In this document: piece after piece, positions 9,121 to 51,210 of the stretch
Layout of the letters: the number at the start of each line of letters is the position of its first letter
Numbering within the stretch: the first letter of the stretch is position 1
DNA from: Candidatus Omnitrophota bacterium
GTDB taxonomy: Bacteria > Omnitrophota > Gorgyraeia > Gygaellales > Profunditerraquicolaceae
DNA: 64,000 bases
Direction of reading: 5' to 3'
NCBI GenBank assembly: GCA_028717245.1
Contig: JAQUOD010000001.1
Coordinates: 309,324-373,323 of the forward strand
The notes under the pieces: model-generated
What the model was told of the DNA's origin: nothing
The model's database searches: none
What the model saw: only the letters and a program-made list of their open reading frames with translations
Position numbers and translations under genes: made by a program

Positions 9121-9754
9121 TTCTTATCCTTTCAATTGCTAACCTGGTATTCTTTGCGCCGAATATATAAGAACCCGCGGCTAAAATATCAGCCCCTGAT
9201 TTTATAATCCTGGCTGCTACCTTATCGTTTACTCCCCCGTCTACAGAAATATCCCCTTTAAAAATAGAGCGTAACTGCCTTATTTTTGGCAATACTGCAG
9301 GTATAAAAGATTGGCCGCTAAAGCCGGGGTTGACTGACATAACTAAAACAAAATCTACAAACCCCAGCGTTTCCTTAATTTTTGTTAAGGGTGTAGCAGG
9401 ATTCAAGGATATACCGAGCTTTATTCCCTTTTTTTTAAGCTTTACGCTTTGCGCTTTAAGCTTTGCGCTTGATATGGCTTCAATATGCACGGTAATCATA
9501 TCGCTTCCGGCACTTATAAATTCATCAATGAATTTCTGCGGGTTTTCAATCATTAAATGCACGTCTAAAGGGAGCTTTGTCACCCGGCGTATATATTTAA
9601 CCACTACCGGCCCGATGGTAATATTAGGCACAAAGTGTCCGTCCATAACATCTATGTGCAGCATATCTGCACCCGCTGACTCCACCTTTTTTATTTCCCG
9701 GGCAAGGCAGCTAAAATCCGCAGATAATATGGATGGTGCGATTTTGATTTTCAT
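9110..9754 (-). CDS. rpe: ribulose-phosphate 3-epimerase
   Basis: MKIKIAPSILSADF...HIDVMDGHFVPN. Confidence 0.92.
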   Translation of the reverse strand: MKIKIAPSILSADFSCLAREIKKVESAGADMLHIDVMDGHFVPNITIGPVVVKYIRRVTKLPLDVHLMIENPQKFIDEFISAGSDMITVHIEAISSAKLKAQSVKLKKKGIKLGISLNPATPLTKIKETLGFVDFVLVMSVNPGFSGQSFIPAVLPKIRQLRSIFKGDISVDGGVNDKVAARIIKSGADILAAGSYIFGAKNTRLAIERIRNAR

Positions 9755-10317: not shown

Positions 10318-10342
10318 ACTGATTATTGTTAAAATTAGTTCA

Positions 10343-10420
10343 TTGAGTTTATTGAGTTCATAGAGTTATTGAGTTATACATGGTTTAACTCAAAAAACTC
10401 AACAAACTCAAGTAACTCAA
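10343..10420. repeat. phased heptamer array: 4 x TTGAGTT then 4 x AACTCAA (long imperfect palindrome) between proA and nadD
   Basis: TTGAGTT at 10343, 10352, 10361 (TAGAGTT) and 10369. AACTCAA at 10387, 10396, 10405 and 10414. Spacing is 8-9 bp in both arms. Confidence 0.8.
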
Positions 10421-10424
10421 CAAA

Positions 10425-11684
10425 CTATTTTCTAATTTGTCCCTTCCCGAATATCGTATATTTATATGTCGTTAATTCTTCTAATGCCATAGGCCCCCGC
10501 GCATGCAGTTTATCCGTAGAGATACCTATCTCAGCACCCATGCCGAATTGATAACCGTCAGTAAAACGCGTGGAGGCGTTCAGATAAACACAGGCAGAAT
10601 CCACCTGCTTTAAAAAAACTTCTGCGTTCTCTTTATTATCGGTAACAATAGCATCGGAATGATGCGAACCATAATGATTAATGTGCCTGATTGCCTCTTC
10701 TAAACTATCTACGACCTTAACCGATAGGATCAAATCCAGATACTCCGTATGGTAATCTGCATCTTTTGCCTTTTTAATATTTTTCACGATTTTGCAGGTT
10801 ATAGGGCAACCGCGGATTTCCACGCCGGCTTCTTTAAATTTCTTAATCATCCCGGGTAAAAATCTTATGGCAACATCTTTATGCACGAGCATGCTCTCCA
10901 TGGCATTGCAGACTCCAGGCCGCTGAACTTTAGCGTTGTAACATAAATTTTGGGCCATATTCAGGTCTGCCCAATCGTCAACATATACATGGCAGATACC
11001 CTTGTAATGTTTTATTACCGGGATACGCGAAGTTTTGACTACGCGGTTAATCAGGCTTTCGCCGCCGCGGGGAATCACTAGGTCAATATAATCGTTTAAT
11101 TTCAGTAATATATCCACGGCCTGCCTGTCGGCAGTAGTAACCATATTAACGATGCCCGGCGAGATACCTGATCTCTTTATTACCTCTTTGAGTATCTGGT
11201 ATATGGCCAGGTTAGAATTCAGGGCCTCGCTGCCCCCTCTTAAGATAACTGCATTTGCGGATTTAAAACATAACCCGATACAATCCGCAGTCACATTAGG
11301 CCGCGACTCATAAATAATCGCGATTACGCCGATAGGCACGCGCACTTTATTTATCAGGAGGCCGCAAGGCCTGCGCCAAGCCCTCATTACTTCACCCACC
11401 GGGTCATCTAATCCGGCTATTTCTAATAAAGAGCCTGACATCTCTTCTATCCTCTTTTGGTTAAGAACGAGCCTGTCGATAAATGCAGCCGATGAGCCAT
11501 TGGCAAGAGACTTCTGTATATCCTTCTTGTTTGCTTTGAGGATAATGTTTTTATTTTTCTTTAAGGCCATGGCCATGCCCTTGAGAACTTTATTCTTCAA
11601 CGCAGAGGATACGTTAAGCATGCCTAATGATGCCTCACGGGCATTCCTGGCTATACGGATAAATTCTTCTTTCAGCTGCGCCAT
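10425..11684 (-). CDS. proA: glutamate-5-semialdehyde dehydrogenase
   Basis: 419 aa, aldehyde dehydrogenase fold; gene order proB-proA. Confidence 0.9.
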   Translation of the reverse strand: MAQLKEEFIRIARNAREASLGMLNVSSALKNKVLKGMAMALKKNKNIILKANKKDIQKSLANGSSAAFIDRLVLNQKRIEEMSGSLLEIAGLDDPVGEVMRAWRRPCGLLINKVRVPIGVIAIIYESRPNVTADCIGLCFKSANAVILRGGSEALNSNLAIYQILKEVIKRSGISPGIVNMVTTADRQAVDILLKLNDYIDLVIPRGGESLINRVVKTSRIPVIKHYKGICHVYVDDWADLNMAQNLCYNAKVQRPGVCNAMESMLVHKDVAIRFLPGMIKKFKEAGVEIRGCPITCKIVKNIKKAKDADYHTEYLDLILSVKVVDSLEEAIRHINHYGSHHSDAIVTDNKENAEVFLKQVDSACVYLNASTRFTDGYQFGMGAEIGISTDKLHARGPMALEELTTYKYTIFGKGQIRK

Positions 11685-14166: not shown

Positions 14167-15609
14167 TTAAGATATTCTTATATCCTCTATATTGAGGCTG
14201 GGGTCAGCTACGGTATTAACTTTCACCCTGAATTTACGCTCAATAAAACGCAGGTGCTCTTTATCTCTTAGAACCTCATCAGCCACGGCAGGATTCAATA
14301 TAATCTTAGCCTCTTTTATAGACTTACCTTTGAGGAATCTCCTTAGCTCTTTAAGCGCGTAAATGGACATGGTCACTGGGGATTTAATCCTGCCCTTTCC
14401 CTGGCAGTAATGGCAGGCCTGATAAGAAAGCATCTGGACAGTCCTGTGTATGCGTTCACGGGTCATCTCTATCAGCCCGAATTTGGAAATACCCTCAATA
14501 TCGTATTTTGCCTTATCATTACTTAATTCTTTTTTGAGCACGTTTAAGACTTCCCGGCGGTGAGATTCCTTTAACATATCAATAAAATCTATGACGATTA
14601 TCCCTCCGAGGTCGCGCAATCTTAATTGGTGGGCAACCTCAATGGCTGCTTCGCAGTTTACCTTAAACGCCGTCTCTTCCTGTTCGGTTTTCTTCCTGAA
14701 ACCTCCGCTATTTACATCGATAACCACCAGGCCCTCGGTAGGCTCGATTATAATATATGCCTTTGATTTTAAATAGATCTTATTCTCAAAAATCCTGCTT
14801 ACCTGTCTTTCAATATCCTTATCTTCAAAGAGGCTATCTCCCCGGTATAATTCTACCCTGTTAGAGAGGTATCTTAAGAACGTGCTGATAAAACGGTGTA
14901 TCCGGCGGTATTCTTCTTTGGAATCTACAATTAATTTAGTAACGTCTTCGGTAAAAGAATCGCGTATCGCCCGCAGGGTCAAATCGTACTCCTCATAGAC
15001 AAGGGAAGGCGCTTTCTTCGCGCGGATTATTTTCTCAATCCTCTTCCATAACTTAATCAGAAAATTAGCATCCCTGAGCAATTCTTTCTTAGATTTACCC
15101 TGCGCAGCTGTGCGCACAATAAAACCCATATCCGTAGGCAGTTTTAATTCATGGAATATTGTTTTAAGGCGCATCCTCTCAACATCATCCTCTATCTTAC
15201 GCGATATCCCTACCTGATGGTCTTGGGGCATAAGCACCAGGTACCTTCCCGGAAGGCCGATATGGGTAGAAAGGCGCGGGCCTTTTGTGCCGAATGATTC
15301 TTTCACTACCTGCACCAGGACTTCCTGGCCCTTCTTGACTTCACGGGGGATATTCTCTTGTGGCGTTTCCACGAATTCAAAAGCAGATTCTATCTCGGTT
15401 AAGTATAAGAAACCTTTCTTGGGTAAGCCTATATCGACAAAGGCGGCGCCGATATTGGCAAGGGCTGCTTCGATTTTACCCTTATAGATATTACCGACTA
15501 TAGTCTTATCCTGCGGCCGTTCGATATAAAATTCTTCCAGGCGGCCGTCATTAACTATGGCTACCCGCTTTTCCTGCGGTTCAATATTAATCAATATCTC
15601 TTTAGGCAT
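14167..15609 (-). CDS. rng: ribonuclease E/G family (RNase G-like)
   Basis: N-terminal S1 domain plus RNase E/G catalytic core (DIDGGxxxxKK-like region), 480 aa. Confidence 0.85.
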   Translation of the reverse strand: MPKEILINIEPQEKRVAIVNDGRLEEFYIERPQDKTIVGNIYKGKIEAALANIGAAFVDIGLPKKGFLYLTEIESAFEFVETPQENIPREVKKGQEVLVQVVKESFGTKGPRLSTHIGLPGRYLVLMPQDHQVGISRKIEDDVERMRLKTIFHELKLPTDMGFIVRTAAQGKSKKELLRDANFLIKLWKRIEKIIRAKKAPSLVYEEYDLTLRAIRDSFTEDVTKLIVDSKEEYRRIHRFISTFLRYLSNRVELYRGDSLFEDKDIERQVSRIFENKIYLKSKAYIIIEPTEGLVVIDVNSGGFRKKTEQEETAFKVNCEAAIEVAHQLRLRDLGGIIVIDFIDMLKESHRREVLNVLKKELSNDKAKYDIEGISKFGLIEMTRERIHRTVQMLSYQACHYCQGKGRIKSPVTMSIYALKELRRFLKGKSIKEAKIILNPAVADEVLRDKEHLRFIERKFRVKVNTVADPSLNIEDIRIS

Positions 15610-21584: not shown

Positions 21585-23849
21585 TTATCGCACTACAGAA
21601 GCTGATTGCGAGCCGGGCTTAGGCGCATGATAATCTTGATTAAAATTAAACTCCAGCTCAGGAAATGCCTTTAGCCTAAAAACAAACCAGATGCTTTCGC
21701 CGTAGCCTCTTTTAACATTGTAGGTAACATCCCAAGTCCAACAGTGTAAATCTCTGGATATGGTATATTCCTGTTCTCTTAAACCCCTGGCCCTATTCGT
21801 TTCGTGCCCCCTATAGTATCTCTGATAAGCCGAGAACTTCCATTTAGGAGTCAAGCGCCACTTTAGATCATAGGTTATTTCATTGCCGCCTTTTATCTCA
21901 TAACGCTGCCCTACCCCGAATGAGCGTTCATTCCCAAAATCAAAATTAATATCATAATTACCGTTAGAGAAATGGTTGTATTTAGGGTCAGAGCGGGCCC
22001 CGGAATGCGTATAGGTGGCATCAGCATCTATATGCATCCATGAATATGGCAAGATTCGCAAATCAAAGAGGACATCAGAGAAGCCGCTGCCCCGCTTACT
22101 CCTTCCTTCCGAGATAGATTTAGGTTTATATACATAGGAGGTATTGATGCGTAAATCCGCAAAATCCACGCTTTTATTATTACGTTTTGTCTGCAGTTTA
22201 TTGGATATTTCAAAAGCCGGAGAGTTGCTGCTGGTATCAATCGTATCTACATCATCTATCTGCCTAAGCTTAGCGCTTCCTATGGTAGGCTCGTGACGAT
22301 AGGTATAACTTACGGTAGGCGTAATGATATGCCTTAAGCCGTTTATATCTAACCCTAAAAAGTTGCTCTTTATATCAAATATACGGTAAAATTTAGTGCT
22401 CATATCCGCCCCGCCATAAAAAATAGTGCGCGGGGCTTCGTCGGAAGCGCTAACCGCCTTTTTATCGTAAAAGGTCAGGCGGTCCATAACAAAAGGAGTG
22501 AAATTGATAAAAGCTACCTTCATAGGTATGGACAGCTTATTACTGGTATCCAGCCTGTCCACGTGGGCATCAGGATTAGTATCGTTTGCCGTAGGCGTCA
22601 TGGTGCTGGTGTTCTTCTTATTATAACTGCCCGCAGAAGTAGTATCTTCAAAATAAAATGGGCTGTCTAAAATCTGGTAACTGGGCAGGCTATATTTTAC
22701 TTCGGGGAGCTTTTCCAAATAACCCGGGTCATACCAACGGTTAGTACGTTTCTGCACAAGTATATCTAAGCTGGAATAATTGAAACTGTGGTGCAATAAG
22801 GCATAACTCAGCGGTTGGCTATCCTTTTCGTATTCACGATAGAAATAATCTTTCAGAAAATTATATGTAGGGCCCTTGATCGCCATCTTAGAATCCGTAA
22901 TTTTATAATATTCTGAGGTAAAATCTGTTCTTTCGTCTATAGTCCACTTGTGCCGCCAACGGATAAGGTATCTTTGGAATATTCTGGGATTGCTATTGTC
23001 TTTGGGAAGGGTATGGTCTCTTTCCTGGGTATAATAATATTTGAAATCGCCTCTTCCGAAATTTTCACTTTTATAATTAGCCCCAAAACCTTCTGCTACG
23101 CCGAGTTTAGTGCGATAATCCAGGTAAATCCTGCCGTTGATATTATCGGTAAAGCTGTATCTCCAGGCGCTGAGCATATAAGGGCCCCATTCTTTTTTCT
23201 TACCGGGCGTTAACTGCACGTGCGCCATCGGGTCCTTCAGGTTATGGTTGTATCGGGGAAGATACAATATGGGCACCTTACCTATGTAGAAAGCATTATC
23301 CTTAGCCTGGATCTTGTCATTCGGAAAAACATCTATCTTTCCGGATTTAATACGGTAATGGGGATTATCATAACTACAAGTGGTAAAATATCCCCGGTTA
23401 GCTATAAATTCGCTATCGCTCACCTTCTCTACGTTCTCTGCCCTGCCGAAATAGGGATTAGCCCGAAAACCTGAATCAATAATAATGCCTTTCTTGGTCT
23501 GGAAATTATATTTTATTTTTTTTCCCTCTACTATCCCTTCCTTATCTTCCAGCCTGACATCGCCTTCGGCCTGTGCATCCTTAGTCTGGGTGTTTACGCT
23601 CAACTTATGGCAGGTCAGCTTGCTGCCTTTATAGATTACCGATACGTTTCCCGTAGCAGTCACTTCTTTGGCATCGGTAGAATATTCAACCGTATCGCCG
23701 TTCACAATAATAGCTTCGTCTTTTTTCTCTTGGGCGTATAAGCTGTAAGCTGTAAGCTGTAAGCTGTAAGCGAAAATAAAAAAGGACAGTGAAATCATCC
23801 TAAGAAATTTCAACTTTTGAACTGTGATTTCTAATTTATGACTTATCAC
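21585..23849 (-). CDS. lptD: LPS-assembly protein LptD (OstA family)
   Basis: 754 aa with OstA N-domain and large beta-barrel region. The annotated GTG start is doubtful; an internal ATG (MISLSFFIF...) about 16 codons downstream fits a signal peptide better. Confidence 0.8.
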   Translation of the reverse strand: MISHKLEITVQKLKFLRMISLSFFIFAYSLQLTAYSLYAQEKKDEAIIVNGDTVEYSTDAKEVTATGNVSVIYKGSKLTCHKLSVNTQTKDAQAEGDVRLEDKEGIVEGKKIKYNFQTKKGIIIDSGFRANPYFGRAENVEKVSDSEFIANRGYFTTCSYDNPHYRIKSGKIDVFPNDKIQAKDNAFYIGKVPILYLPRYNHNLKDPMAHVQLTPGKKKEWGPYMLSAWRYSFTDNINGRIYLDYRTKLGVAEGFGANYKSENFGRGDFKYYYTQERDHTLPKDNSNPRIFQRYLIRWRHKWTIDERTDFTSEYYKITDSKMAIKGPTYNFLKDYFYREYEKDSQPLSYALLHHSFNYSSLDILVQKRTNRWYDPGYLEKLPEVKYSLPSYQILDSPFYFEDTTSAGSYNKKNTSTMTPTANDTNPDAHVDRLDTSNKLSIPMKVAFINFTPFVMDRLTFYDKKAVSASDEAPRTIFYGGADMSTKFYRIFDIKSNFLGLDINGLRHIITPTVSYTYRHEPTIGSAKLRQIDDVDTIDTSSNSPAFEISNKLQTKRNNKSVDFADLRINTSYVYKPKSISEGRSKRGSGFSDVLFDLRILPYSWMHIDADATYTHSGARSDPKYNHFSNGNYDINFDFGNERSFGVGQRYEIKGGNEITYDLKWRLTPKWKFSAYQRYYRGHETNRARGLREQEYTISRDLHCWTWDVTYNVKRGYGESIWFVFRLKAFPELEFNFNQDYHAPKPGSQSASVVR

Positions 23850-23892
23850 TTATAGCTTATAGCTTATAACTTATAGCTTATAACTTATAACT
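23736..23892. repeat. two tandem short-repeat blocks at the lptD 5' end: (GCTGTAAG)x4.5 at 23740-23771 inside the coding region, and (CTTATAR)x7 at 23841-23892 across the start
   Basis: Read directly from the sequence. The in-frame octamer block encodes AYSLQLTAYSLYA in the LptD signal-peptide region. Confidence 0.9.
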
Positions 23893-24537
23893 TCACTTGG
23901 GGATTTTCTTATAATCCTCCAGGAACCTCTGGACGCCTATGTCCGTCAAGGGGTGTTTTATCAGCTGTTCGATGACGGCAAAAGGTATGGTGGCGATATC
24001 TGAGCCGATCTTTGCCGCCTCTACTACATGCAAAGGATTACGGATAGAAGCTACGATTATCTGGGTCTTAAAATTATAATTGGAGTAGACCTGTTTTATA
24101 TCGCGGATCAAATCCATTCCTACCTGGCTTATATCATCCAGCCGGCCGATAAAGGGCGATATATAGTCTGCCCCGGCCTTGGCCGCGAGTATTGCCTGTG
24201 AAGGAGAAAAACAAAGCGTAACATTTGTTTTTATTCCTTTTTCGGAAAGAATTTTTACTGCCTTAAGTCCCTCCTTAACCAGGGGAACCTTAATCACGAT
24301 ATTCTTGGCAATCTTAGAAAGCTCTAAGGCCTCAGCGACCATGCCGTTAGCTTCCAAAGATATAACCTCTGCGCTTACCGGGCCATTTACCAATGAACAT
24401 ATCTCTTTTAATAATTCGCCTGCCTTACGGTTTTCTTTTGCGATTAGGCTGGGATTGGTGGTAACCCCGTCTATGACACCTAAAGCTACTGCCTCTTTTA
24501 TATCTTTTACATTCGCGGTATCAATGAATATTTTCAC
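23893..24537 (-). CDS. tal: transaldolase (fructose-6-phosphate aldolase-like short form)
   Basis: [16 protein letters not shown]...TTNPSL; GTG start. Confidence 0.9.
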
Positions 24538-30119: not shown

Positions 30120-30144
30120 TTTCCCGTATTGTGTATCGCGTTAT

Positions 30145-30162
30145 GCGTATTGCGCAATACGC
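30145..30162. promoter_or_regulatory. perfect 18-bp palindrome GCGTATTGCGCAATACGC upstream of accD, embedded in CGCAATAC/GTATTGCG repeats
   Basis: The sequence reads identically on both strands. Extra copies of the 8-mer lie at 30166-30174 and, degenerate, at 30125-30140. Confidence 0.75.
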
Positions 30163-30180
30163 CATACGCAATACTCGCTC

Positions 30181-31458
30181 CTAATCACCATGTTTATTAA
30201 TTACCAGCCCCGATAATACCTTCGGATAGAAATAAGTAGATTTAGGCGGCATCTTCTGGCCGGTTAAGGCCACGGAAATTATCTGCTGGATTTTCACCGG
30301 GTTCAAAAAGAAGGCAATATATGTATTATCACTATCTACTCTATCAATCAATTCCTGTGCATGGGGACTATAGGCGATATTCTCCTGATCACCCGCGCCC
30401 ATCCCCATGGCCTTTTTAAAAATCAGGTGGTTTAATATAGAAACGTCCAATGACCTCACCGAGTGGGGTTTATCGCTGATTATCTTATCCAGGATCTTGA
30501 TATTCTTTAAACGCAGGAGCCAGTATTTCTTATCATAATACATACCCAAGGCATGTTCGCTCTGCCCGCCTTTTGCCAGAAGGAAGAAGAAACGCGTTCT
30601 ATCCTTAATCTCCTCCATCTCAAAGAAGTCTTTGATATTCTCTCTAAAATTTTCCATATCCAGCCTATGGTCTAATTTTATCAGGCGGTGGATAGGTAAT
30701 ATAGTAAGGCCGCCGGGGTTTGTATTGGTAAAATAAGCCAGGGTATAATCGAAATCCGCTTCCTGCGCGCTGCCACCTAACTTTTTCCTCATCTCGTCCC
30801 TGTAAATACAGGATACTTCATAACGGTGGTGGCCATCCGCGATAAAGATGCTTTCGTTTTGCATCTTGGATTTTATGCTATCCAAAATATCAGGAGAATC
30901 CAGCCTCCATAGCCTATGGTTGACTTTTTCTTTATCTACTATATCAATAAAAGGCTTCTCATCCTGAATATGTTGATTGATACCAGAGATAATACGTTTT
31001 TTATCGGAGAAAATCACAAATATGGGGCTTAGATTCGCCTTAACGCTTTTAAGCAATTTCAGCCTATCTTCCTTGGGTTCAAGGCGGGTATGTTCATGCC
31101 CGTATATAGCTGTTTTTTTATCCTCCAGGTACAAACGCGCGATAAACCCCAGGCGGGTCTTTTTCTCTCCCTTAATATTATACTGCTGGCTATAAAAATA
31201 TATTGCCGGCGACCTGTCTGGGTTGAGTATCTTATTCTTTTGCCACTCCTTAAAAAGATACGCCGCGCGCCGATACTTATCTTCACCGGGGATATCTTTA
31301 CCTAAAAGTATATGAATGAAGTTATGGGGATTAAGATCGTGATAGTATTGCTGTTGCGCAGGCGAGATGACATCATAGGGCGGGCAGACAACAGAAGAAA
31401 GGTCATTGGTCTCTCCCGGATTATAAATAAGCGCTCTAAAAGGCTCTATCTTTGCCAT
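30181..31458 (-). CDS. DUF1015 family protein
   Basis: MAKIEPFRALIYNPGE is a typical DUF1015 N-terminus; 425 aa. Confidence 0.7.
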   Translation of the reverse strand: MAKIEPFRALIYNPGETNDLSSVVCPPYDVISPAQQQYYHDLNPHNFIHILLGKDIPGEDKYRRAAYLFKEWQKNKILNPDRSPAIYFYSQQYNIKGEKKTRLGFIARLYLEDKKTAIYGHEHTRLEPKEDRLKLLKSVKANLSPIFVIFSDKKRIISGINQHIQDEKPFIDIVDKEKVNHRLWRLDSPDILDSIKSKMQNESIFIADGHHRYEVSCIYRDEMRKKLGGSAQEADFDYTLAYFTNTNPGGLTILPIHRLIKLDHRLDMENFRENIKDFFEMEEIKDRTRFFFLLAKGGQSEHALGMYYDKKYWLLRLKNIKILDKIISDKPHSVRSLDVSILNHLIFKKAMGMGAGDQENIAYSPHAQELIDRVDSDNTYIAFFLNPVKIQQIISVALTGQKMPPKSTYFYPKVLSGLVINKHGD

Positions 31459-31476
31459 AGTTTAGCTAGAGAGTTC

Positions 31477-31737
31477 TTATTTGTGCGGACAGGACTTACA
31501 ACCGTCTTTGGCTTGCGCGCAGGCCTTGCTCGGATTATGTCCGGAGGCAGGCGGATTTTTACGGTAATCCGTCGCATAAAATCCTTTACCCTTAAAGATT
31601 ACGCCCGAACCCGAACCTATAAGCCGCCTGATTTTTTGATTACATTTAGGGCATTTAGTTAATGCCGCTGCGGTCATTTTCTGGAAAAGCTCAAATTGGT
31701 GCCCGCAATGCGTACATTCGTATTCGTAGGTTGGCAC
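31477..31737 (-). CDS. FmdB-family zinc-ribbon protein
   Basis: YECTHCGHQFE...CPKCNQ dual CxxC; 86 aa. Confidence 0.75.
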   Translation of the reverse strand: MPTYEYECTHCGHQFELFQKMTAAALTKCPKCNQKIRRLIGSGSGVIFKGKGFYATDYRKNPPASGHNPSKACAQAKDGCKSCPHK

Positions 31738-31760
31738 TTGTTCATTCCTTTTTTATAATA

Positions 31761-31834
31761 AAGTATCAAGGTGTCAATGTGTCAGAGTATCAAAGTAAAA
31801 CTTTGACACTTTGATACCTTGACACTCTGATACA
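31761..31834. repeat. phased heptamer array: 4 x GTRTCAR then 4 x YTGAYAC (imperfect palindrome) between dnaJ stop and FmdB start
   Basis: GTATCAA 31763, GTGTCAA 31771, GTGTCAG 31780, GTATCAA 31787. TTGACAC 31802, TTGATAC 31811, TTGACAC 31819, CTGATAC 31827. Confidence 0.75.
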
Positions 31835-32998
31835 TTATTTAAATGCTTTCTTTATCCTATCGACAACGCCTTCCCTGTTTATGTCTTCACCCGACGATCT
31901 GGCAAAATCTTCTATGAGCCGGCGTTGCTCTAAAGTTAAACGCGTAGGGATTTCAACCGTTACTCTAACCAGTTCATCGCCTATATCCCTGCTATGTACA
32001 TCGGGTATGCCTTTCTCCCTAAGCCGGAAAATTTTTCCGCTTTGCGTGCCAGGGGGTATCTTCATTTCAACATGGCCATTGAGCGTAGGAACCTCTATCT
32101 CAGAGCCTAATATCGCTTTCGTTAAGCTGATAGTTACTCCAGTTAATATATCATTATTGTGCCTTTGAAAAACCGGATGCGGCCTTACCTCAATAACTAC
32201 ATATAAATCGCCTCTGCCGGCAGTGCCGGATTCTCCCTCTCCCCGTATCCTCAAATGCGAATCCGTATCTACTCCGGCGGGGATCTTCACTTTAATCTTA
32301 CGCGTTACCTTAGTCCTGCCTTGCCCGCGGCATTGCGGGCAGGGCGCTTGTATAATCGAACCTTCTCCGCCGCAGCGCGAACAGGCCTGGGCCAGCTGAA
32401 AAAAACCGTTAGAGACTACTGTACGGCCCGAACCTTTACACTGAGAACAGGTAACCTTTTTAGTGCCCGGTTTTGCTCCGCTGCCCGCGCATACCTGACA
32501 TGTTTCATAGCGGGGCACATTAATAGTCTTTTCCGTACCGCTGGCTGCTTCTTCCAAAGTTATATTCAATGCAATCTCTAAATCTCTCCCGCGGCGCGCA
32601 GCACGTCCTGTGCCCTGACGGCCCCTGCCGCCGAAAATATCATAGCCTAAATCGCTGAATATTTCGTCAAATAACCCGCCTCCTACGCCAAAGTCTCCCA
32701 GGTCCTGGAATACGCTGTTAAAATCTGCCCCCTTAAAAATATCTTCATAGGCATATTTCTGATCTATCCCGGAATGGCCATACTGGTCATAAAGGGCCCG
32801 CTTTTGAGAATCAGAAAGTACCGCATAAGCTTCGGAAATTTCTTTGAACTTCTCTTCTGCTTCTTTTTTTTGCTCGTGAGGCACCCTGTCCGGATGATAA
32901 CGCAGGGCCATCTCCCGATAGGCCTTCTTTATTTCATCCAGACTGGCACTCTTTTTGACTCCCAGGATTTCGTAATAATCACGTTTTGTAGTCGGCAT
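31835..32998 (-). CDS. dnaJ: molecular chaperone DnaJ
   Basis: J-domain HPD, G/F region, four CxxCxGxG zinc repeats. Confidence 0.95.
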
Positions 32999-33007
32999 TC
33001 TTAGTTT

Positions 33008-33046
33008 TAAGCTGTAAGCTTTAAGCTTACGGCTTACTGCTTAAGA
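33008..33046. repeat. GTAAG-family heptamer tandem repeat / hairpin in the dnaK-dnaJ intergenic region
   Basis: AGCTGTAAGCTTTAAGCTTACGGCTTACTGCTTAAGACTTACC. Contains a 9-bp stem GCTGTAAGC/GCTTACGGC with loop TTTAA. Confidence 0.7.
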
Positions 33047-34960
33047 CTTACCACTTTTATCATCTTCTTCCTTAAAATCCGCGTCTATAATATCTTCGTC
33101 TTTTCCGCCGGAGGCGGATCCGCCTTCGGCGGACTTCTTATCCTCTGGCTCTTCAGTTTGCTCCTGGCCTCTTGCACCTTGCGCCTGGCCCTGTTGCTGC
33201 TGTTTCTGCGCTGCCTGCTTATATATTTCTTCTGCTAATTTATGCGAGGCCTTGGTTAAATCCTCTGAGCCCCTTTTGATCCTATCAACGTTCTTATCTT
33301 TTATAGCTGCCTTAAGGTCATTGAGCTTTGCTTCTATATCTAAGCGCTCTGCCTGGGAGACTTTATCGCCGAATTCTTTCAGGGATTTCTCCGTAGCGTA
33401 AACAAGATTGTCTGCCTGGTTAATGACTTCTACTTCTTCTTTCTTCTTTGTGTCTTCGGCGGCAAACTTTTCCGCATCCCTGACCATCTTATCGATTTCT
33501 TCTTTAGAGAGCTTCTTGGGTGCGGTAATGCGTATGGATTGTTCTTTGCCTGTGCCTAAATCCTTGGCAGAAACGTGCACAATCCCGTCACGGTCAATAT
33601 CAAATTTTACCTCTATCTGCGGAACGCCGCGCGGAGCCGCGGGAATACCTACCAGGTCAAACCTGCCCAATTCCACGTTATCATCGGCCATCTGGCGTTC
33701 GCCCTGAAGCACGCGGATAGTCACCGCCGTCTGATTATCGGCAGCTGTGGAAAATATCTGGCTCTTTTGCGTAGGGATAGATGCGTTTCTTTCAATCAAT
33801 TTTGTATCTACTCCGCCTAAGGTTTCAATACCGAGGGATAGCGGGGTAACATCCAAAAGCAATACATCTTTAACATCCCCCTTTATAATCGCTGCCTGTA
33901 TTGCAGCGCCTAAGGCAACGCACTCCATGGGGTCGACTCCGCGCTCTATTTTCTTGCCGACATAATCCTCGACAAATTTCTGCACGATAGGCATACGCGT
34001 AGGCCCGCCGACCATGATAATCCTGTCTATATCTTTGGGCGTCAATTTGGCATCGCTGATTGCCTGCTCCATGGGGTGGCGGCACCGGTCAATTATAGGC
34101 GAAATCAAATCCTCTAATTTTGCGCGGGTGATGGTCATGGTTAAATGCTTAGGGCCGGTGGCGTCTGCCGTGATAAAAGGTAAATTGATATCCGTGCTTA
34201 CCGTAGAGGATAATTCTATCTTGGCCTTCTCCGCTGCCTCGCGTAACCTCTGCACAGCCATCTTGTCATTCATCAGGTCTATCCCGGTTTCGCGTTTAAA
34301 TTGCCCGGCAATATGTTCAAGTAATACCTTATCCATATCTGTGCCGCCTAATTGCGTATCGCCTGATGTTGACTGCACATGGAATACGCCTTGAGCCATT
34401 TCCATTATAGTGACATCCAGGGTTCCGCCGCCTAAATCAAAGACCATGATCTTCTGCTCTTTCTGCGCTTTTTCAAGGCCATAAGCCAGGCAGGCTGCGG
34501 TCGGTTCGTTTATAATCCTTAATACTCTTAAACCCGCTATTTCACCGGCATCCTTAGTAGCTGTCCTCTGGTTATCATCAAAATATGCGGGGCAGGTAAT
34601 TACCACTTCCTCAACTTTATCTCCGAGATACGCCTCCGCATCCTGCTTTATCTTTTGCAGGATAAAAGCGGAGATCTGTTGCGGCGTATATTCCTTGCCG
34701 AAAACTTTAAACTTAAAGTCAGTACCCATCTTACGTTTAGCAGCTTGTATAGTACCTTCTGCGTTAATTGCTGCCTGGCGCCTAGCCGGCTCGCCGACTA
34801 AACGCTGGCCGTCTTTGGTAAAAGCAACGTAAGAAGGGAATGCCTTGCCTGATGCCACGCCCGCGCCTTCGGCAGACGGGATTATTACGGGCCTGCCGCC
34901 TTCCATCACTGCTGCTGCCGAGTTAGATGTCCCTAAGTCAATACCTATCACTTTAGCCAT
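33041..34960 (-). CDS. dnaK: molecular chaperone DnaK
   Basis: [16 protein letters not shown] and VGGPTRMP Hsp70 signatures. Confidence 0.97.
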
Positions 34961-34987
34961 ATTGCACCTCCGTAAATTTTAAATTAT

Positions 34988-35080
34988 CCAATTGCTAAAT
35001 CCCAATTAATTTCCAATTATTCAATTACCAATTGTAGAATTGGGCATTGGTAATTTATTGGACATTGGAAATTGGGAATT
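34988..35080. repeat. CCAATT/AATTGG palindromic element, copy 1, in the dnaK leader
   Basis: 4-5 x CCAATT, then 5 x ATTGG inverted. About 93 percent identical over about 95 nt to the copy at 51105-51210. Confidence 0.85.
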
Positions 35081-35087
35081 ATAAAAT

Positions 35088-35639
35088 TTATTTCTGTTTA
35101 CTAACCTTCACTTTCGCCGTCCTGATAATCCGGTCATTCAATAAATAACCTTTTTGTAATTCCTCTATAACGGTGTGCTCCGGCACATCAATGTCTTCTG
35201 CCTGCATCAGCGCTTCGTGGTAATGCGGGTCAAATAACTTACCCTCTGCCTCGATGGGTTTAACCCCGTATTCTTTCAGCATTTCGTAAAGATGCGCCAG
35301 GATCATTTCTACGCCTTTTAAAAAAACCGGCAGGTCCTGGTGTTTAGACTGGGCTAATTCCACAGTGCGCTCTAAATCATCCAGTATATTTAATAATTCT
35401 AGAATAATGCCTTCGTTAGCAAATTTTACAAAATCCTGCTTTTCCTTCTCTAAACGCTTACGCGTATTATCAAAATCAGCCTGCAGCCGCAGCAACCTGT
35501 CCCAGTATTCCTTAGCTTTTTCTGCCTCTTCCTTTAACTTCAGGTATTCGGATTCTGGCAAAGAAACGGTCTTTTCTTCTTTTGCGGGCGCTTCGGTGTG
35601 CTTTTTATCCTCTTGCTGATTTTGTTTCTGGGGCTGCAT
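35088..35639 (-). CDS. grpE: nucleotide exchange factor GrpE (start placed at internal ATG with SD)
   Basis: The ORF track extends to 35798, but AAGGATGACGATG gives an SD plus ATG at 35639. GrpE coiled-coil and beta domain follow. Confidence 0.85.
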   Translation of the reverse strand: MQPQKQNQQEDKKHTEAPAKEEKTVSLPESEYLKLKEEAEKAKEYWDRLLRLQADFDNTRKRLEKEKQDFVKFANEGIILELLNILDDLERTVELAQSKHQDLPVFLKGVEMILAHLYEMLKEYGVKPIEAEGKLFDPHYHEALMQAEDIDVPEHTVIEELQKGYLLNDRIIRTAKVKVSKQK

Positions 35640-36400: not shown

Positions 36401-36427
36401 TTAGCGCTTCCACCATAAGAATGCTAA
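36401..36427. promoter_or_regulatory. CIRCE operator 2 (TTAGCGCTT-N9-GAATGCTAA), immediately downstream of the hrcA promoter -10
   Basis: Matches the CIRCE consensus TTAGCACTC-N9-GAGTGCTAA at 14/18 arm positions. Promoter TTGACA (36456-36461) -16- TAGAAT (36434-36439) on the minus strand. Confidence 0.8.
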
Positions 36428-36492: not shown

Positions 36493-36519
36493 TTAGCGCC
36501 CTCAACCATAGAGTGCTAA
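36493..36519. promoter_or_regulatory. CIRCE operator 1 (TTAGCGCCC-N9-GAGTGCTAA)
   Basis: 15/18 arm matches to the CIRCE consensus. Located upstream of the -35 element. Confidence 0.8.
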
Positions 36520-39094: not shown

Positions 39095-39895
39095 TTAAGG
39101 AATGATCTTTGTGGGATAACCTTCGCCTGAAAGTCGATTTTCTAATTGCGTTGCTTCCGAGCGTAACTTTAATCTTCCGACCTTAACCCGGTAGACCCTG
39201 GCATCATTCATCTGGGCCTCTTCGGTATAGGCATCGTATCCTCTCTTGATTAATTTATCGCGTAGATTCCCGGCATTTGAGGCCTTTGCAAACGAGCCTA
39301 CCTGTACGGTATAGTATATATCCGTAAGAGAATACAGTTCCTTATCTAATTTTACTTCAAGGCTGGAAGGAAAATTTTTCTTTAGTTTGTCCAGGTATTC
39401 TTTTGCCTGCTGGGTATCCCCTGTCTTGAATCCGATCTGGCTGAGCCGGTAATAAAGCGAAGCGGTAAATCTTGTGCGGGGGTCAACATTTAAGAGTTCT
39501 TTGTAGTAATCTTGCGCCTTAACGTATTCGCCTCTTAGGAAATAAGTGTCGCCTAACCCTACCTGCGCGCCTTCCGTAAAAGGGCTATTTTTGAATTCTT
39601 TAAGTAATATTTCAAATATATCCGAAGCACGCAGATAATTACCGTCCTTAAGATAACTTAAGGCCAGTATATAATACAGCTCTTCCAGGCCAGAATGGCT
39701 GCCGCTATAATTAGCTAAGGCCTTTTCGCCTGCTGATATAGCGGACTTGTAATCGCCGTTTAAAAAGGAAACCTTAACCTTATCAATATCTAAGGCATAA
39801 GCACTGTTACAAATCACAATACACAATACACAAATTATAAATAATACCCATTTCCGTAAGCTGTAAGTGGTAAGCTGTAAGCCGTAATTTAACAT
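39095..39895 (-). CDS. TPR-repeat protein with C-terminal SPOR (peptidoglycan-binding) domain
   Basis: TPR motifs. C-terminal YTVQVGSF...YRVKVGRL matches SPOR. The N-terminus is encoded by a GTAAG heptamer repeat. Confidence 0.7.
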   Translation of the reverse strand: MLNYGLQLTTYSLRKWVLFIICVLCIVICNSAYALDIDKVKVSFLNGDYKSAISAGEKALANYSGSHSGLEELYYILALSYLKDGNYLRASDIFEILLKEFKNSPFTEGAQVGLGDTYFLRGEYVKAQDYYKELLNVDPRTRFTASLYYRLSQIGFKTGDTQQAKEYLDKLKKNFPSSLEVKLDKELYSLTDIYYTVQVGSFAKASNAGNLRDKLIKRGYDAYTEEAQMNDARVYRVKVGRLKLRSEATQLENRLSGEGYPTKIIP

Positions 39896-41151: not shown

Positions 41152-41841
41152 TTATGAGAATATATTTAAGATATCTTTTTCTCTTGCTTCTTCCAATCCT
41201 TTTATAACTTTCTTCTGCCATTTCGGTAACATGGAATTAAAAACGTGTTTAATGGTTGCTGCTTCGCCCTTATTTATCAAAGCCTTAATAATTTCTATAG
41301 CAGCATTCCTGTCTTTTGCGGCTTTATCTTCCTTGAATCTACGCTGGAAAATGATTAATTTGTGGAGGGCAAAATTGATAGGATGAGGTAATAAAACTTC
41401 AAAATCTTCAACTTTAGCCTTAATTACATTGTCGGTAAGCAAACTCAAAAACCTCAGAGCAACCGCATTAACGCCTAATTTTGGTAAGGGGATTGGCTTG
41501 TCGCTGCCTTTTCCTTTTTCTGGAGATAAAAATTCTACTACCAAATCAGGATGTTCTAATTTAATATATCCTTTTGCTCCCCTATAACCAATGATAAATC
41601 CTAAGTCTTTTAATAATTCTGGAATATTCACATTAACGCTGATTCCGTGTGGGTTGGGAATCAAGAAATCTACGTCTCTTGTTTTAATGGTCGAGATATA
41701 CTTTATACCTACAAAATATTCTTTATAGAATGGAATACACCAACTACCTATAAGAATAACGTCTTTTAGAACTCCGGCCTTCTCTAATCTTTTTAGAACT
41801 TTAACGCATAGTTCATATTGATTCTTTTCCACGCAAAGCAC
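41152..41841 (-). CDS. nucleotidyltransferase-fold protein (AbiEii/MNT-like, candidate toxin/effector)
   Basis: 229 aa. LIGSW...RDVDFLI resembles the GS...DxD minimal nucleotidyltransferase motif. Overlaps the upstream small gene by 29 nt. Confidence 0.5.
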   Translation of the reverse strand: MLCVEKNQYELCVKVLKRLEKAGVLKDVILIGSWCIPFYKEYFVGIKYISTIKTRDVDFLIPNPHGISVNVNIPELLKDLGFIIGYRGAKGYIKLEHPDLVVEFLSPEKGKGSDKPIPLPKLGVNAVALRFLSLLTDNVIKAKVEDFEVLLPHPINFALHKLIIFQRRFKEDKAAKDRNAAIEIIKALINKGEAATIKHVFNSMLPKWQKKVIKGLEEAREKDILNIFS

Positions 41842-42130
41842 TCCTTAAGAATCTGATTTGTTTTTTTACTTGAGATAATAATTTCCTATACTTGGCCCTG
41901 TATTCTTTTACTTCTCTATATTTCTTTATTTCTTCGTCAGATACTTTCCCCTTGTAGATAAATTTAACCTTACCCTTCTCCCGTAACAGAATATAGTAAT
42001 ATTCGTGCCCCTTGACCTTCTTCTTAATAAGGCTGCCTTTAGGCAATTTTGCCAATTCTCTCTCATAATCGCTTTTCATCCGTATAGAATTCTCAAGTTC
42101 TTCTTTAAGTACCCCTTTTATCACTCCCAT
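41813..42130 (-). CDS. small Lys/Tyr-rich protein, candidate partner (antitoxin or regulator) of the nucleotidyltransferase
   Basis: 105 aa, highly basic, no recognisable family. First gene of the two-gene unit, downstream of the operator-laden promoter. Confidence 0.45.
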   Translation of the reverse strand: MGVIKGVLKEELENSIRMKSDYERELAKLPKGSLIKKKVKGHEYYYILLREKGKVKFIYKGKVSDEEIKKYREVKEYRAKYRKLLSQVKKQIRFLRSALRGKESI

Positions 42131-42156
42131 ATTATCTCTCCATTTAATATAAGATA

Positions 42157-42226
42157 GTTACCATACAAACTACTGAATAGTATATATTGTATGGTAACTA
42201 TTGTCAAACAAAAAAGTTACCATACA
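42157..42226 (-). promoter_or_regulatory. consensus sigma70 promoter (TTGACA-17-TATACT) embedded in three copies of the 11-mer GTTACCATACA (two inverted), a candidate autoregulatory operator
   Basis: Minus-strand -35 at 42202-42207 and -10 at 42179-42184. 11-mer copies at 42157-42167, 42188-42198 (inverted) and 42216-42226. Confidence 0.7.
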
Positions 42227-42430
42227 TTTTTTGTAATTCATGCTTTTGTAGGGTAACTGGCGGCTGAGATTAAAAAAGTCTCTCCGTAACTTTAGTTTCT
42301 AAAATTATGGCCTGTATAACCTAACCCATTTATTCCAAAACACTTATCCTCTTTAATACTTCAAGCGCCATCCCGAGCCACTGTAACCAACGGCCAGCCG
42401 AAAGTCCAGATAGATATTCTTCTTATCCAT

Positions 42431-44446
42431 TTAATGTTTCAACAGCGCCACGGGTCTATATTTTACTGAATAAATCGCTGCGATTATATATAAACCTAAG
42501 GCTATCAGGTAGAGGGCGTTTAAACCCCAGATCATAGAGGTGTACTCCAGGAAACCCCCGATTACCGCACCCAAAAGGTTTGAACCCAGGGCAATACCCG
42601 TATCCTTTGTATGTTTAAGTATAACCGCAAATATCAAAGACGTAAAGAATATAGGTAAGGCCAATAATATGCCGGCAGAAAGAATTTTAGCTAAAAACCC
42701 CAGCCTCAATAAATTAGTAACGGGAAAAAAGTAAAGAAAAAATAAAGATAATATCAGACCTACCAGGAACCAGCGCGGGTTTTCTAATTGCCTCGCCTGC
42801 ACAAACCAATTAGCCAGCAATGCAATAGTTAAAATAGCCGAAAATACCACCGCGTTCACTATCCAGGTAGAGCCGAAAAGCAGGGAAAAAGTAGTCACGC
42901 TTTTTGTCTCAAGCAGGAGAAAACCGCACCCCAATAAGAAAAATAAAGGGTCTATTTTTCCGGGCTTAAGGGGTGAAAAGACCAATACCGCCATAATAGA
43001 AAAACAGATAAGGAAAATGAGCGTAGTCAGATAAAGATGAGGAATGCCGCGCTGGGTAAGATATAAATAAGGCCAGTCATCTTTAGGGAGAGTAGTATTT
43101 AATTTTTCAGGCGGGGCAGATAGAATTTTAGATAGATCCGCATTCTCTGAAAGCGCCTGCCTGACTCCTGGCCCTGCCACTATCACCAGATTAAATAAAT
43201 AGCCGTCCATAATAACATAGCGCGTATCCTGCGCGCCAAAGACAGAACGTACTGTCTCCAGGAGCCTATTAGCTAACCAATCCGTAGGGACAGAGAAAAG
43301 CAGGACCATGACTCCTTGGGTGCTGAGTAATTGCTTTGCCTCCGTAAGCGCTTCCTGGGTATAAACGTAATTATCTAAACGTATGGAAGAAGTCACGGAA
43401 AGAGTAGCATGAGAATCCAGGGTCCCATAGATAATCATATCGTATTTTTCCCTGGCTTTATGCATAAATGAACGGGCATCATCTACAAAGACCCTTACCC
43501 TTTTAGCCTCATAAGGACGCTGGGGATGTTTTTGGTAACCCACCTTCAGGATAATCGGGTCTATTTCCACTGCATCGATGGATTCAACCCCGGCGTTGCG
43601 CGCAATCCAGACGTCATTGCCCGTGCCCGAACCTATGATCAATACCCGCTTAGGATGAAACCACTTATAAGGAAACATATATTTTTCATACGTCGTTTTT
43701 TCCTGTTCAAAGTTTACCGCCTTTTGATGAGCGAGTTTATTTATGTAGACAAGTATACCTTTATTATCGGTTTCTCTTAAATCAATAGCATAATAAGGTG
43801 ACCATAAGGTGCCTTTTTCCGCGAATCCTATGGTAAGGACGATCGCTACCATAGCCATTAGTCTTATAACAAAGCCCTGTTTTTTATAATTTATTGCCGC
43901 AACCGCTAATCCTGTAATGATAAACCAGAGATAGGCCGGGGCGCAAAAAAGGGCAAGCAATCCGAAGCCAATAACACCCAGCAGGCTCCCTAAAATATTC
44001 AAGGTGTAAGCGCGTAAAGGGATAAGCCCCTGCATAAGCTTACCTATCTTCTGCCCGACAGGAACAAGAATAACCACCGTTAAGGCAAAAATTAACCCTA
44101 TAAGCTGCGCAATAGTAAGTTTTAAGGAAGATAAATTATAGAGCCTATTTTCCTGATAATAACTCCAGATCCAGGTCTGGGCATTGGCAGGCAGCGCTAC
44201 CTGGATATCCCGTAAAAACAAAACCAGGCATACGCCAGCCAAAAGGATATATGGAAAGAAATTGAAGAAATCGCGTTTGTAGTGCGAAAGAAGTAACCCT
44301 AAACCTAATCCTAAAAACGAGGCAATCAAAACAATATTAGAAAAGAAGGCGATAGAGAAAATATGCGCGGGAAACCAGCGGATAAGGCTAAGCTCAAGAA
44401 AAAGGCCTAAAAAACTCACTAAAACCAATTCTATCTTCTGCCTCAT
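42431..44446 (-). CDS. polytopic membrane protein with spermidine synthase-like (aminopropyltransferase-fold) domain
   Basis: VLIIGSGTGND...DAVEIDP...DMIIYGTLDSH methyltransferase-fold motifs, flanked by many TM helices. Confidence 0.7.
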   Translation of the reverse strand: MRQKIELVLVSFLGLFLELSLIRWFPAHIFSIAFFSNIVLIASFLGLGLGLLLSHYKRDFFNFFPYILLAGVCLVLFLRDIQVALPANAQTWIWSYYQENRLYNLSSLKLTIAQLIGLIFALTVVILVPVGQKIGKLMQGLIPLRAYTLNILGSLLGVIGFGLLALFCAPAYLWFIITGLAVAAINYKKQGFVIRLMAMVAIVLTIGFAEKGTLWSPYYAIDLRETDNKGILVYINKLAHQKAVNFEQEKTTYEKYMFPYKWFHPKRVLIIGSGTGNDVWIARNAGVESIDAVEIDPIILKVGYQKHPQRPYEAKRVRVFVDDARSFMHKAREKYDMIIYGTLDSHATLSVTSSIRLDNYVYTQEALTEAKQLLSTQGVMVLLFSVPTDWLANRLLETVRSVFGAQDTRYVIMDGYLFNLVIVAGPGVRQALSENADLSKILSAPPEKLNTTLPKDDWPYLYLTQRGIPHLYLTTLIFLICFSIMAVLVFSPLKPGKIDPLFFLLGCGFLLLETKSVTTFSLLFGSTWIVNAVVFSAILTIALLANWFVQARQLENPRWFLVGLILSLFFLYFFPVTNLLRLGFLAKILSAGILLALPIFFTSLIFAVILKHTKDTGIALGSNLLGAVIGGFLEYTSMIWGLNALYLIALGLYIIAAIYSVKYRPVALLKH

Positions 44447-51095: not shown

Positions 51096-51104
51096 AATTC
51101 AATT

Positions 51105-51210
51105 TCCAATTAGCCAATTGCCAAATCCCAATTAATTTCCAATTATTCAATTACCAATTGTAAAATCGGTCATTGGTAATTTATTTGACATTGGAAATTG
51201 GTAATTGGCC
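51105..51210. repeat. CCAATT/AATTGG palindromic element, copy 2; its right arm encodes the last 10 codons and the stop of lipA
   Basis: Near-identical to copy 1. The lipA frame reads through ATTGG repeats to TAA at 51181. Confidence 0.85.

Follow-up and report, generated by a model that had tools for sequence, protein, structure and literature searches.

What kind of element is the 74-nt stretch at positions 31761-31834 of a 64,000-nt segment of contig JAQUOD010000001.1 (Candidatus Omnitrophota bacterium, assembly GCA_028717245.1; the whole segment is referred to as the window), and why does it reside between dnaJ and a gene for an FmdB-type Zn-ribbon protein? The stretch contains four copies of the heptamer GTRTCAR and four copies of its reverse complement YTGAYAC. 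It is a real hairpin: downstream of dnaJ, four repeats of 8 bases pair with four complementary ones. The hairpin is one member of a large population of repeat-built hairpins at gene junctions of Omnitrophota. Our preferred explanation, to which we assign a probability of roughly 60%, is that the array is a slippage-driven, hairpin-forming, intercistronic tandem-repeat palindrome that is transcribed within an operon and looped out in the mRNA.

On the forward strand, the GTRTCAR units start at 31763, 31771, 31779 and 31787, and the YTGAYAC units at 31803, 31811, 31819 and 31827 (arms and loop are listed in Table 1). The initial annotation had described a 4 + 4 inverted heptamer array at this place, and its coordinates and flanking genes hold; the spacing of 8-9 bp given there does not, as the period is exactly 8 nt, making the unit an 8-mer that consists of a 7-nt core and one variable base. 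Each strand has one match to the four-unit pattern, and 100 dinucleotide shuffles have none (0 expected by chance). Elsewhere in the window the single heptamer occurs at background level (12 and 13 matches, compared to about 15 expected per strand), and the GTRTCA element is single-copy in the 64 kb. Tandem Repeats Finder (TRF) detects both arrays, with period 8 for YTGAYAC and periods 8 and 16 for GTRTCAR, and an inverted-repeat finder reports 29-nt arms with 79% complementarity. A Logan contig from SRR22315508, an independent assembly, is 100% identical over window positions 31144-33129, hence the sequence is real and not an assembly artefact. The predicted RNA fold has an energy of -37.4 kcal/mol (z = -6.5) for the minus strand, which is the sense strand of the flanking genes, and of -41.6 kcal/mol (z = -8.2) for the plus strand; for either strand, 0 of 200 shuffles are as stable. 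Helices of about 7 bp, split by 1x1 mismatches mainly at the eighth, variable base of the unit, make up the stem. Rfam has no match in the window at gathering thresholds, so that the array belongs to no Rfam family, and a permissive search returns only sub-threshold matches to models of eukaryotic microRNA precursors on both strands, which are generic long hairpins.

The position of the hairpin relative to the translation signals is precise. The array begins 4-5 nt past the dnaJ stop codon, and in the predicted fold this UAA (31835-31837) is paired with 31757-31761 in an A-U basal extension of the stem. The Shine-Dalgarno (SD)-like AGGA of the Zn-ribbon gene begins 7 nt past the last paired base, and the GTG start follows 19-22 nt after the end of the hairpin. 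The surrounding gene order is two CIRCE-like repeats, hrcA, grpE, a CCAATT element, dnaK, a GTAAGC element, dnaJ, the GTRTCAR array, Zn_ribbon_8, DUF1015, a GTATTG element and accD. Because the array lies inside this co-directional string, the operon mRNA most likely includes it. The CIRCE-like inverted repeats (36401-36427 and 36493-36519; TTAGCRC...N9...GAGTGCTAA with 2-3 mismatches, 0.01 expected by chance) are located upstream of hrcA, and the hrcA-grpE-dnaK-dnaJ string is therefore probably controlled by HrcA. A search of the window with the operator TTAGCACTC-N9-GAGTGCTAA matches only at 36401 and 36493, and not in the array. An RNA thermometer was considered and rejected: stems of this kind, at -20 to -65 kcal/mol, are much too stable, and the hairpin does not sequester the SD of the Zn-ribbon gene.

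The forward strand carries a promoter-like sequence, TTGGCA-17-TATAAT at 31731-31759, that agrees with the consensus in 11 of 12 positions and points antisense into the hairpin. It could belong to an antisense small RNA gene, transcribed from about 31766, with the hairpin and a U-rich stretch as body and terminator. The greater stability of the plus-strand fold and the T-rich plus strand past the stem (ATTATTTAAATGCTTTCTTTAT) agree with such a gene. However, the conserved Pro-Thr codons that open the Zn-ribbon gene yield the -35 hexamer when reverse-complemented, the -10 hexamer lies in a generic A/T-rich spacer, and three promoter-like sites in 600 nt compared to 1.1 expected are a weak signal, scored with a consensus that may not be that of Omnitrophota. 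We consider a small RNA gene highly improbable, and the promoter-like site is probably coincidental.

The array is not an isolated case. The census sample comprises 1.24 Mb of non-redundant Omnitrophota DNA, namely the window and 145 loci around dnaJ. Arrays were defined by TRF (period 6-11, at least 2.8 copies), and an inverted partner as an array whose unit is the reverse complement, no more than 130 nt away and with at least 75% identity over three units. The sample contains 261 arrays, 189 (72%) with period 7 and 34 with period 8. An inverted partner array is present for 135 of them (52%), compared to 3% in a swapped-probe null; dinucleotide shuffles yield 15-22 arrays and E. coli K-12 (four 50-kb stretches, 200 kb) yields 5, without a single partner in either control. 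Merging results in 86 palindromes in 49 loci; 82 of the palindromes are intergenic, and the flanking genes are co-directional for 76 of 80. The median element has a stem of 27 pairs and a length of 80 nt, starts 4.5 nt past the upstream stop codon and ends 16 nt ahead of the next start. Counts per locus are over-dispersed: 49 of the 73 loci of at least 8 kb have no element, several have 3-4. Among hairpins of any kind with at least 18 bp (n = 48), 20 have periodic arms. The idea of the initial annotation that different motifs share one architecture is thus stronger than proposed, with at least seven instances in the window, 86 in the sample and none in shuffles or E. coli, and random expectation does not explain them. 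Our literature search retrieved no paper on intergenic repeats of Omnitrophota.

Two junctions are hot spots. A periodic hairpin is present between dnaK and dnaJ in 38 of 130 genomes (29%) and between dnaJ and the Zn-ribbon gene in 16 of 128 (12.5%), compared to 20 of 658 other co-directional junctions (3%). As the automatic background set of junctions over-calls long intergenic regions with non-periodic hairpins, only the count of periodic hairpins is used here; in a control for this call, none of 400 random perfect hairpins was scored periodic. Junction lengths are bimodal, either empty (0-30 nt) or occupied (60-150 nt). For dnaK-dnaJ, 54 genomes have a spacing below 10 nt and 61 one of 50 nt or more; for dnaJ-Zn-ribbon, 80 have at most 30 nt and 40 have 50 nt or more. 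At empty dnaK-dnaJ junctions the stop codon abuts the ATG, and at occupied ones the insert is placed exactly between the two, with an SD-like motif near the ATG in only 2 of 61 cases. At occupied dnaJ-Zn-ribbon junctions, an SD-like motif is kept downstream of the insert in 40 of 40. In both patterns, the translation signals are left intact by every insert. Only a folded insert would keep the dnaK stop next to the dnaJ start, which constitutes the strongest indirect argument for an importance at the RNA level.

Some further features were observed at such junctions. A conserved module, CUCCGAGCGA-N-GAAAGGAGCGAGG, is found directly 3' of many hairpin elements, 2-6 nt ahead of the start codon (L039 at 3980 and 9915, L063 at 7197, L089 at 1480, L098 at 5215 and 7833, L126 at 5240, L137 at 2076, L142 at 5227, L158 at 1359). 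Its CUCC could pair with the first GGAG, and it looks like a ribosome-binding-site module travelling with the elements; it is absent from the window. Families of non-periodic palindromic inserts occupy similar junctions in L033, L087 (e.g. 1799-1974), L064, L091 and L093, and in L051, L089 and L151; AATTCGCAGAC...GTCTGCTCATTAAAGGAG is one type and TTAGGGACGGTTC...GAACCGTCCCTA another.

The geometry of the class also bears on the possibility of leaky intrinsic termination or attenuation, by which the array would end most transcripts of the heat-shock operon past dnaJ. In the sense RNA, UUUAUUAU follows the hairpin, with U at six of the eight positions past the stem; the homologous element of L138 is followed by AUUUUUAA, and the array is situated at the end of the classical hrcA-grpE-dnaK-dnaJ unit. 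A consensus scan, however, finds no terminator at the array. The stem is long, A/U-rich and mismatched, unlike the short G+C-rich stem of a canonical terminator, and the tail is only U-rich. Across the class there is no enrichment of U 3' of the hairpin (mean 2.7 T in 12 nt). Most elements lie within tight operons, including the dnaK-dnaJ junction, where termination would abolish the expression of dnaJ, and in most relatives the Zn-ribbon gene is found 10-20 nt past dnaJ, which suggests co-transcription. Termination is accordingly an improbable role for the array.

The elements turn over between relatives. Members of the GTRTCA 8-mer family are found in the window and in the loci L138, L033 and L007, and in each of them the 5' arm is the one with GTRTCA. 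In L138, a homologous element occupies the same dnaJ-Zn-ribbon junction, with 20 identical bases in the 3' arm and about 11 units in the 5' arm compared to 4 in the window; in L097, the closest relative (about 86% nucleotide identity), this junction is empty. L053 and L091, whose coding DNA is about 95% identical, carry unrelated periodic palindromes between dnaK and dnaJ, CGTATTG-type in one and GCGYAAA-type in the other. L142 has elements at both junctions, whereas the spacers of L151 (90% identical) are 2 and 10 nt long there. In several arrays, for example in L052 and L074, the same mismatch recurs in every unit, and each arm has thus apparently been homogenised on its own, as under slippage. 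No strain-level relatives of the locus, which would reveal polymorphism in unit number, were found among the genome and metagenome contigs searched.

This turnover also bears on a further proposal of the initial annotation, namely that the heptamers are double-stranded DNA binding arrays for one or several paralogous regulators. Palindromic arrays do resemble operators, and a limited vocabulary of motifs recurs across genomes (see below). Against such a role, the 64 kb contain at least five unrelated motifs, and the same junction differs in motif at 95% identity or is empty at 90%. The arrays are located between the cistrons of co-directional operons, from stop codon to ribosome binding site, and not at promoters; the CIRCE operators of HrcA sit upstream of hrcA instead. 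A period of 8 or 7 nt is out of phase with the DNA helix, and the arm order is fixed to gene direction, which is irrelevant for a symmetric double-stranded site. We therefore do not support this proposal and judge it to be very unlikely. The other candidate of the initial annotation, an RNA hairpin family with periodic bulges, agrees with the evidence: the elements are intergenic, lie between co-directional genes, start at the stop codon, spare the next ribosome binding site and have a fixed orientation.

The order of the arms is tied to gene direction. Read in the sense of the genes, the 5' arm is rich in G (26.6% vs 16.4%) and the 3' arm rich in C, in 53 elements compared to 18 (p ~ 1e-5); the GTRTCAR array follows this rule. 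A first impression that the 5' arm is rich in A and the 3' arm in U proved wrong, as A and T are balanced and the skew is one of G and C. A role of the 5' arm as a supplier of stop codons in all frames was also refuted, with a stop triplet in 42 5'-arm units and in 41 3'-arm units. It is a matter of speculation whether the G-first order is selected to keep a C-rich, G-poor single strand from Rho before the second arm is made.

The motifs are likewise not arbitrary and form a limited vocabulary that recurs across genomes. Unit consensus sequences from different loci agree within one mismatch in 117 pairs in the same orientation and in 19 in the opposite one (letter-shuffled mean 34, maximum 55); for pairs at different junctions, the numbers are 81 and 16, and within one genome 10 and 0. 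The motifs, described as unrelated in the initial annotation, are thus not fully so. The apices are A/T-rich, with GTAAAA or TTTTAC in 17 of 74 apices compared to 2 of 148 arm controls. The motif often takes the form GTAAAA-N-TTTTAC, is found across unrelated arm motifs, and is also seen at the apex of the array (31790-31806), whose sequence AAAGUUUUACUUU includes TTTTAC/GTAAAA.

In addition to changes in place, some families are dispersed. In L096, the same motif with the same loop is found in both junctions flanking dnaJ; L155 has two 130-nt elements that are about 96% identical with unrelated flanks; L099 has four copies of one family. In the window, the two CCAATT/AATTGG copies are about 92% identical over about 100 nt at unrelated gene junctions (34973-35090 and 51100-51210), and this periodic element is a dispersed repeat. 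These copies raise the possibility of a non-autonomous mobile element of REP, REPIN or MITE type, in which a trans-acting, strand-specific enzyme (e.g. a transposase of HUH/RAYT or another type) would recognise the repeat units and place the element beside stop codons; the hairpin would then be its substrate and any effect on the mRNA incidental. The near-identical copies, the elements on both sides of dnaJ in L096 and the four copies in L099 speak for this view, as do the clean presence or absence between close relatives, the over-dispersed counts per genome, the oriented vocabulary common to distant genomes and the apex motif common across families. Nevertheless, no target-site duplication is recognisable for the dispersed sibling families or when comparing occupied with empty junctions, no conserved termini were found, and the scanned minus-strand open reading frames (ORFs) of at least 100 aa in the window contain no transposase gene according to Pfam. 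The GTRTCA element itself is single-copy in the window, unit numbers in the arms change in place, as is the behaviour of simple sequence repeats, and the many motifs per genome would require either many enzymes or one that tolerates different sequences. Mobility, which overlaps with our preferred explanation, is possible as the primary nature of the array, and we hold it to be unlikely.

A bolder view, which we put forward only tentatively and regard as rather doubtful, combines these features: the elements would be phylum-wide, orientation-specific, copy-and-paste intercistronic cassettes, whose arms are assembled from 7-8-nt units of a small shared vocabulary. Dedicated machinery (a strand-specific recombinase or transposase, or an RNA-binding factor) would read the units, and the hairpin would let ribosomes re-initiate across inserts of 60-130 nt between the dnaK stop and the dnaJ start.

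According to the slippage explanation, which we prefer, the array would fold within the operon mRNA into a hairpin of about 35 bp, with the dnaJ stop codon in its base and its end 7 nt ahead of the next SD. Replication slippage of 7-9-nt units within each arm would change the elements, giving rise to the differences in unit number and to the periodic 1x1 mismatches; the latter are best read as a by-product of the separate homogenisation of each arm. Template switching is known to homogenise and expand the arms of inverted repeats (PMC13100816, PMC7202029), and expansions of one arm may be copied to the other by this process. Some families have in addition spread by copying to other gene junctions. 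Looping out of the folded insert would preserve the geometry of stop codon, ribosome binding site and start codon, so that the elements could persist in tight stop-to-start junctions. Any effect would be post-transcriptional, with the hairpin acting as a structural insulator, a processing site or a 3'-stabilising structure that uncouples dnaJ from the downstream genes and shifts their expression ratio. It is plausible that the hairpin is tolerated, and possibly used, as a looped-out mRNA structure.

Several points weigh against this explanation. The role of the hairpin at the RNA level is one that we infer, and the comparison of sense and antisense stability, considered as a test of RNA-level selection, was discarded, as the difference is not significant (sense fold stabler in 41 elements, antisense in 32; n = 73, p = 0.19). 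G-U pairs are more frequent in the sense folds (167 vs 128), a weak signal that mutational bias could also explain, and for the array itself the antisense fold is slightly stabler (-41.6 vs -37.4 kcal/mol). The orientation bias may follow the direction of replication and not of transcription; the two are confounded, because nearly all genes in the loci are co-oriented. The dnaK-dnaJ hot spot could reflect tolerance or targeting and not function. Finally, the limited vocabulary and the near-identical dispersed copies exceed what slippage in place would produce and point to a copying mechanism.

The architecture itself is not new, and the closest precedent is the inverted pairs of GGGAATC heptamers in Xanthomonas. 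According to Rehm et al. (2015, PMC4692102), these arrays mostly comprise four units, about 90% of them are intergenic, and they lie close to the 3' end of the preceding ORF. Each genome has 70-75 inverted pairs in convergent orientation, and close relatives differ in the length and sequence of the arrays. As in the array described here (4 + 4 units of 8 nt with a 3-nt loop), two convergent arrays of short units lie close together in intergenic regions between mostly co-directional ORFs and near the 3' end of the upstream one. In contrast, Xanthomonas uses a single G-rich motif, interpreted as forming G-quadruplexes, whereas Omnitrophota have many motifs per genome, none of them prone to form such structures; GTRTCAR has no G-tract. 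The Omnitrophota elements also differ in having periods of 8 and 9 besides 7, a fixed arm order and particular operon junctions, and in belonging to another phylum. Heptamer repeats in general are over-represented in many bacteria, and polymerase slippage has been proposed to favour this size (cited in PMC4692102).

A direct-repeat counterpart is found in marine Beggiatoaceae, where TAACTGA repeats of a single motif, with 2-6 units and only 1 of 170 sets inverted, are located just upstream of start codons without a hairpin, and where a post-transcriptional role has been proposed (MacGregor 2015, PMC4679880). Similarities to the Omnitrophota elements are the intergenic heptamers, the orientation bias relative to the downstream gene, and relatives with shorter, repeat-free junctions. 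The array differs in its motif, in its inverted arrangement and in ending 19-22 nt upstream of the start.

Repetitive extragenic palindromes offer a different comparison. With the REP, BIME and REPIN families, the Omnitrophota elements share that they are intergenic imperfect palindromes with many copies, genome-specific families, an orientation bias and a frequent location within operons past highly expressed genes, where such palindromes can stabilise mRNA 3' ends. REPs are unique palindromes of 20-40 bp that carry a conserved GTAG or CGTC tag and come with a cognate RAYT transposase. The arms of the array, however, are tandem arrays of 33 nt, single-copy in 64 kb and without a GTAG or CGTC tag, and no RAYT was seen among the scanned ORFs of the window.

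The STRR heptamers of cyanobacteria (Calothrix/Anabaena), reportedly described by Mazel in 1990 and Vioque in 1997, are intergenic tandem arrays as well, with several motif families per genome. Complementary STRR arrays are said to extend helix P12 of RNase P RNA, which would show that such arrays can be carried as looped-out RNA helices. The STRR motifs (CCCCAGT, TTGGTCA, CAACAGT) and their lineage, the heterocystous cyanobacteria, are different from those of the array, and to our knowledge no junction-specific geometry has been described for them. Rehm et al. (PMC4692102), who also mention the STRRs, report few inverted pairs in Nostoc. The template switching of quasipalindromes (PMC7202029, PMC13100816) is a process and not an element family; together with slippage it would yield balanced arrays such as 4 + 4.

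New with respect to these systems are the phylum, the large number of motif families per genome and the shared, oriented vocabulary from which they come, the periods of 8 and 9 besides 7, the concentration at the dnaK-dnaJ and dnaJ-Zn-ribbon junctions, the stop-hairpin-start geometry and the coexistence of slippage and dispersal.

Compared with dnaJ of many metagenome-assembled genomes (MAGs) of Omnitrophota, the dnaJ of the window shows 70-84% identity (best match 84% amino-acid identity), and a Zn-ribbon gene adjoins dnaJ in 128 of the loci examined. The approximately 60 scanned ORFs of at least 100 aa in the window are all located on the minus strand and are all housekeeping genes. Intergenic spacers are very short across the window (1-64000). 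The sibling elements of the array are listed in Table 1. The window also contains direct-only arrays of the GTAAGCN/GCTTACN type without an inverted partner (104-134, 39856-39887 and 9434-9470, the last inside the coding region of ribulose-phosphate 3-epimerase); the same unit type builds the arms of the elements at 23736-23893 and 33003-33051. Two adjacent non-periodic hairpins at 42156-42258, in the gap between the ORFs 41813-42130 and 42431-44446, have a common core GTTACCATACA...TGTATGGTAAC and 47-nt arms with 74% complementarity, and represent a different class of palindromic insert.

Table 1. Positions of the array, its flanking genes, the sibling elements and selected genes (window coordinates).
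Feature	Position	Strand	Description
Whole predicted hairpin, sense RNA	31757-31839	-	35 pairs; helices of 5/7/7/2/3/11 bp with single mismatches between them
5' arm, sense strand	31801-31834	-	GTATCAGA GTGTCAAG GTATCAAA GTGTCAAA G; equals YTGAYAC x4 on +
Apical loop	31797-31799	-	UUU in sense RNA; apex sequence AAAGUUUUACUUU
3' arm, sense strand	31763-31796	-	ACTTTGATAC TCTGACAC ATTGACAC CTTGATAC; equals GTRTCAR x4 on +
dnaJ (upstream of array)	31835-32998	-	Pfam DnaJ, DnaJ_C, DnaJ_CXXCXGXG
Zn_ribbon_8 (FmdB-type) gene (downstream of array)	31477-31737	-	GTG start; Pfam
Shine-Dalgarno-like AGGA of Zn-ribbon gene	31746-31749	-	from sequence; outside the hairpin
Sibling, dnaK-dnaJ junction	33003-33051	-	(GTAAGCN)x3 / (GCTTANA)x3, period 7
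Sibling, DUF1015-accD junction	30125-30174	-	GTATTGC-type / complement, period 7
Sibling, grpE-dnaK junction	34973-35090	-	CCAATT/AATTGG arrays
Second CCAATT/AATTGG copy, junction of radical-SAM gene and Pyr_redox_2 gene	51100-51210	-	
Sibling, TTGAGTT array	10335-10426	-	period 9
Sibling	23736-23893	-	(TAAGYTA)n ... 78-nt centre ... (GCTTACA)n, period 7
RNase E/G gene	14167-15609		
Ribosomal protein S1 gene	4763-6304		

Runs of 100 N, which we read as scaffold gaps, occur in several loci (L039 1276-1375, L047 5895-5994, L053 3919-4018 and 7020-7119, L057 4482-4583). Those of L047 and L053 fall at gene junctions, and L091 has repeat elements at the sites of the gaps in L053. The coincidence of the gaps with such junctions suggests that MAG assemblies break at the elements.

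Many bacteria have more heptamer arrays than expected, and Omnitrophota are a lineage in which such arrays are abundant and mostly paired into hairpins. The origin of the arrays by slippage, template switching or mobility is now testable, as is the question of why they are palindromic in tight operons and whether they set the expression ratios of neighbouring cistrons. On the practical side, the elements inflate ORF calls at gene starts in Omnitrophota and are likely to interrupt MAGs. If the elements were indeed copy-and-paste cassettes, they would constitute a tunable and fast-evolving control of cistron stoichiometry.

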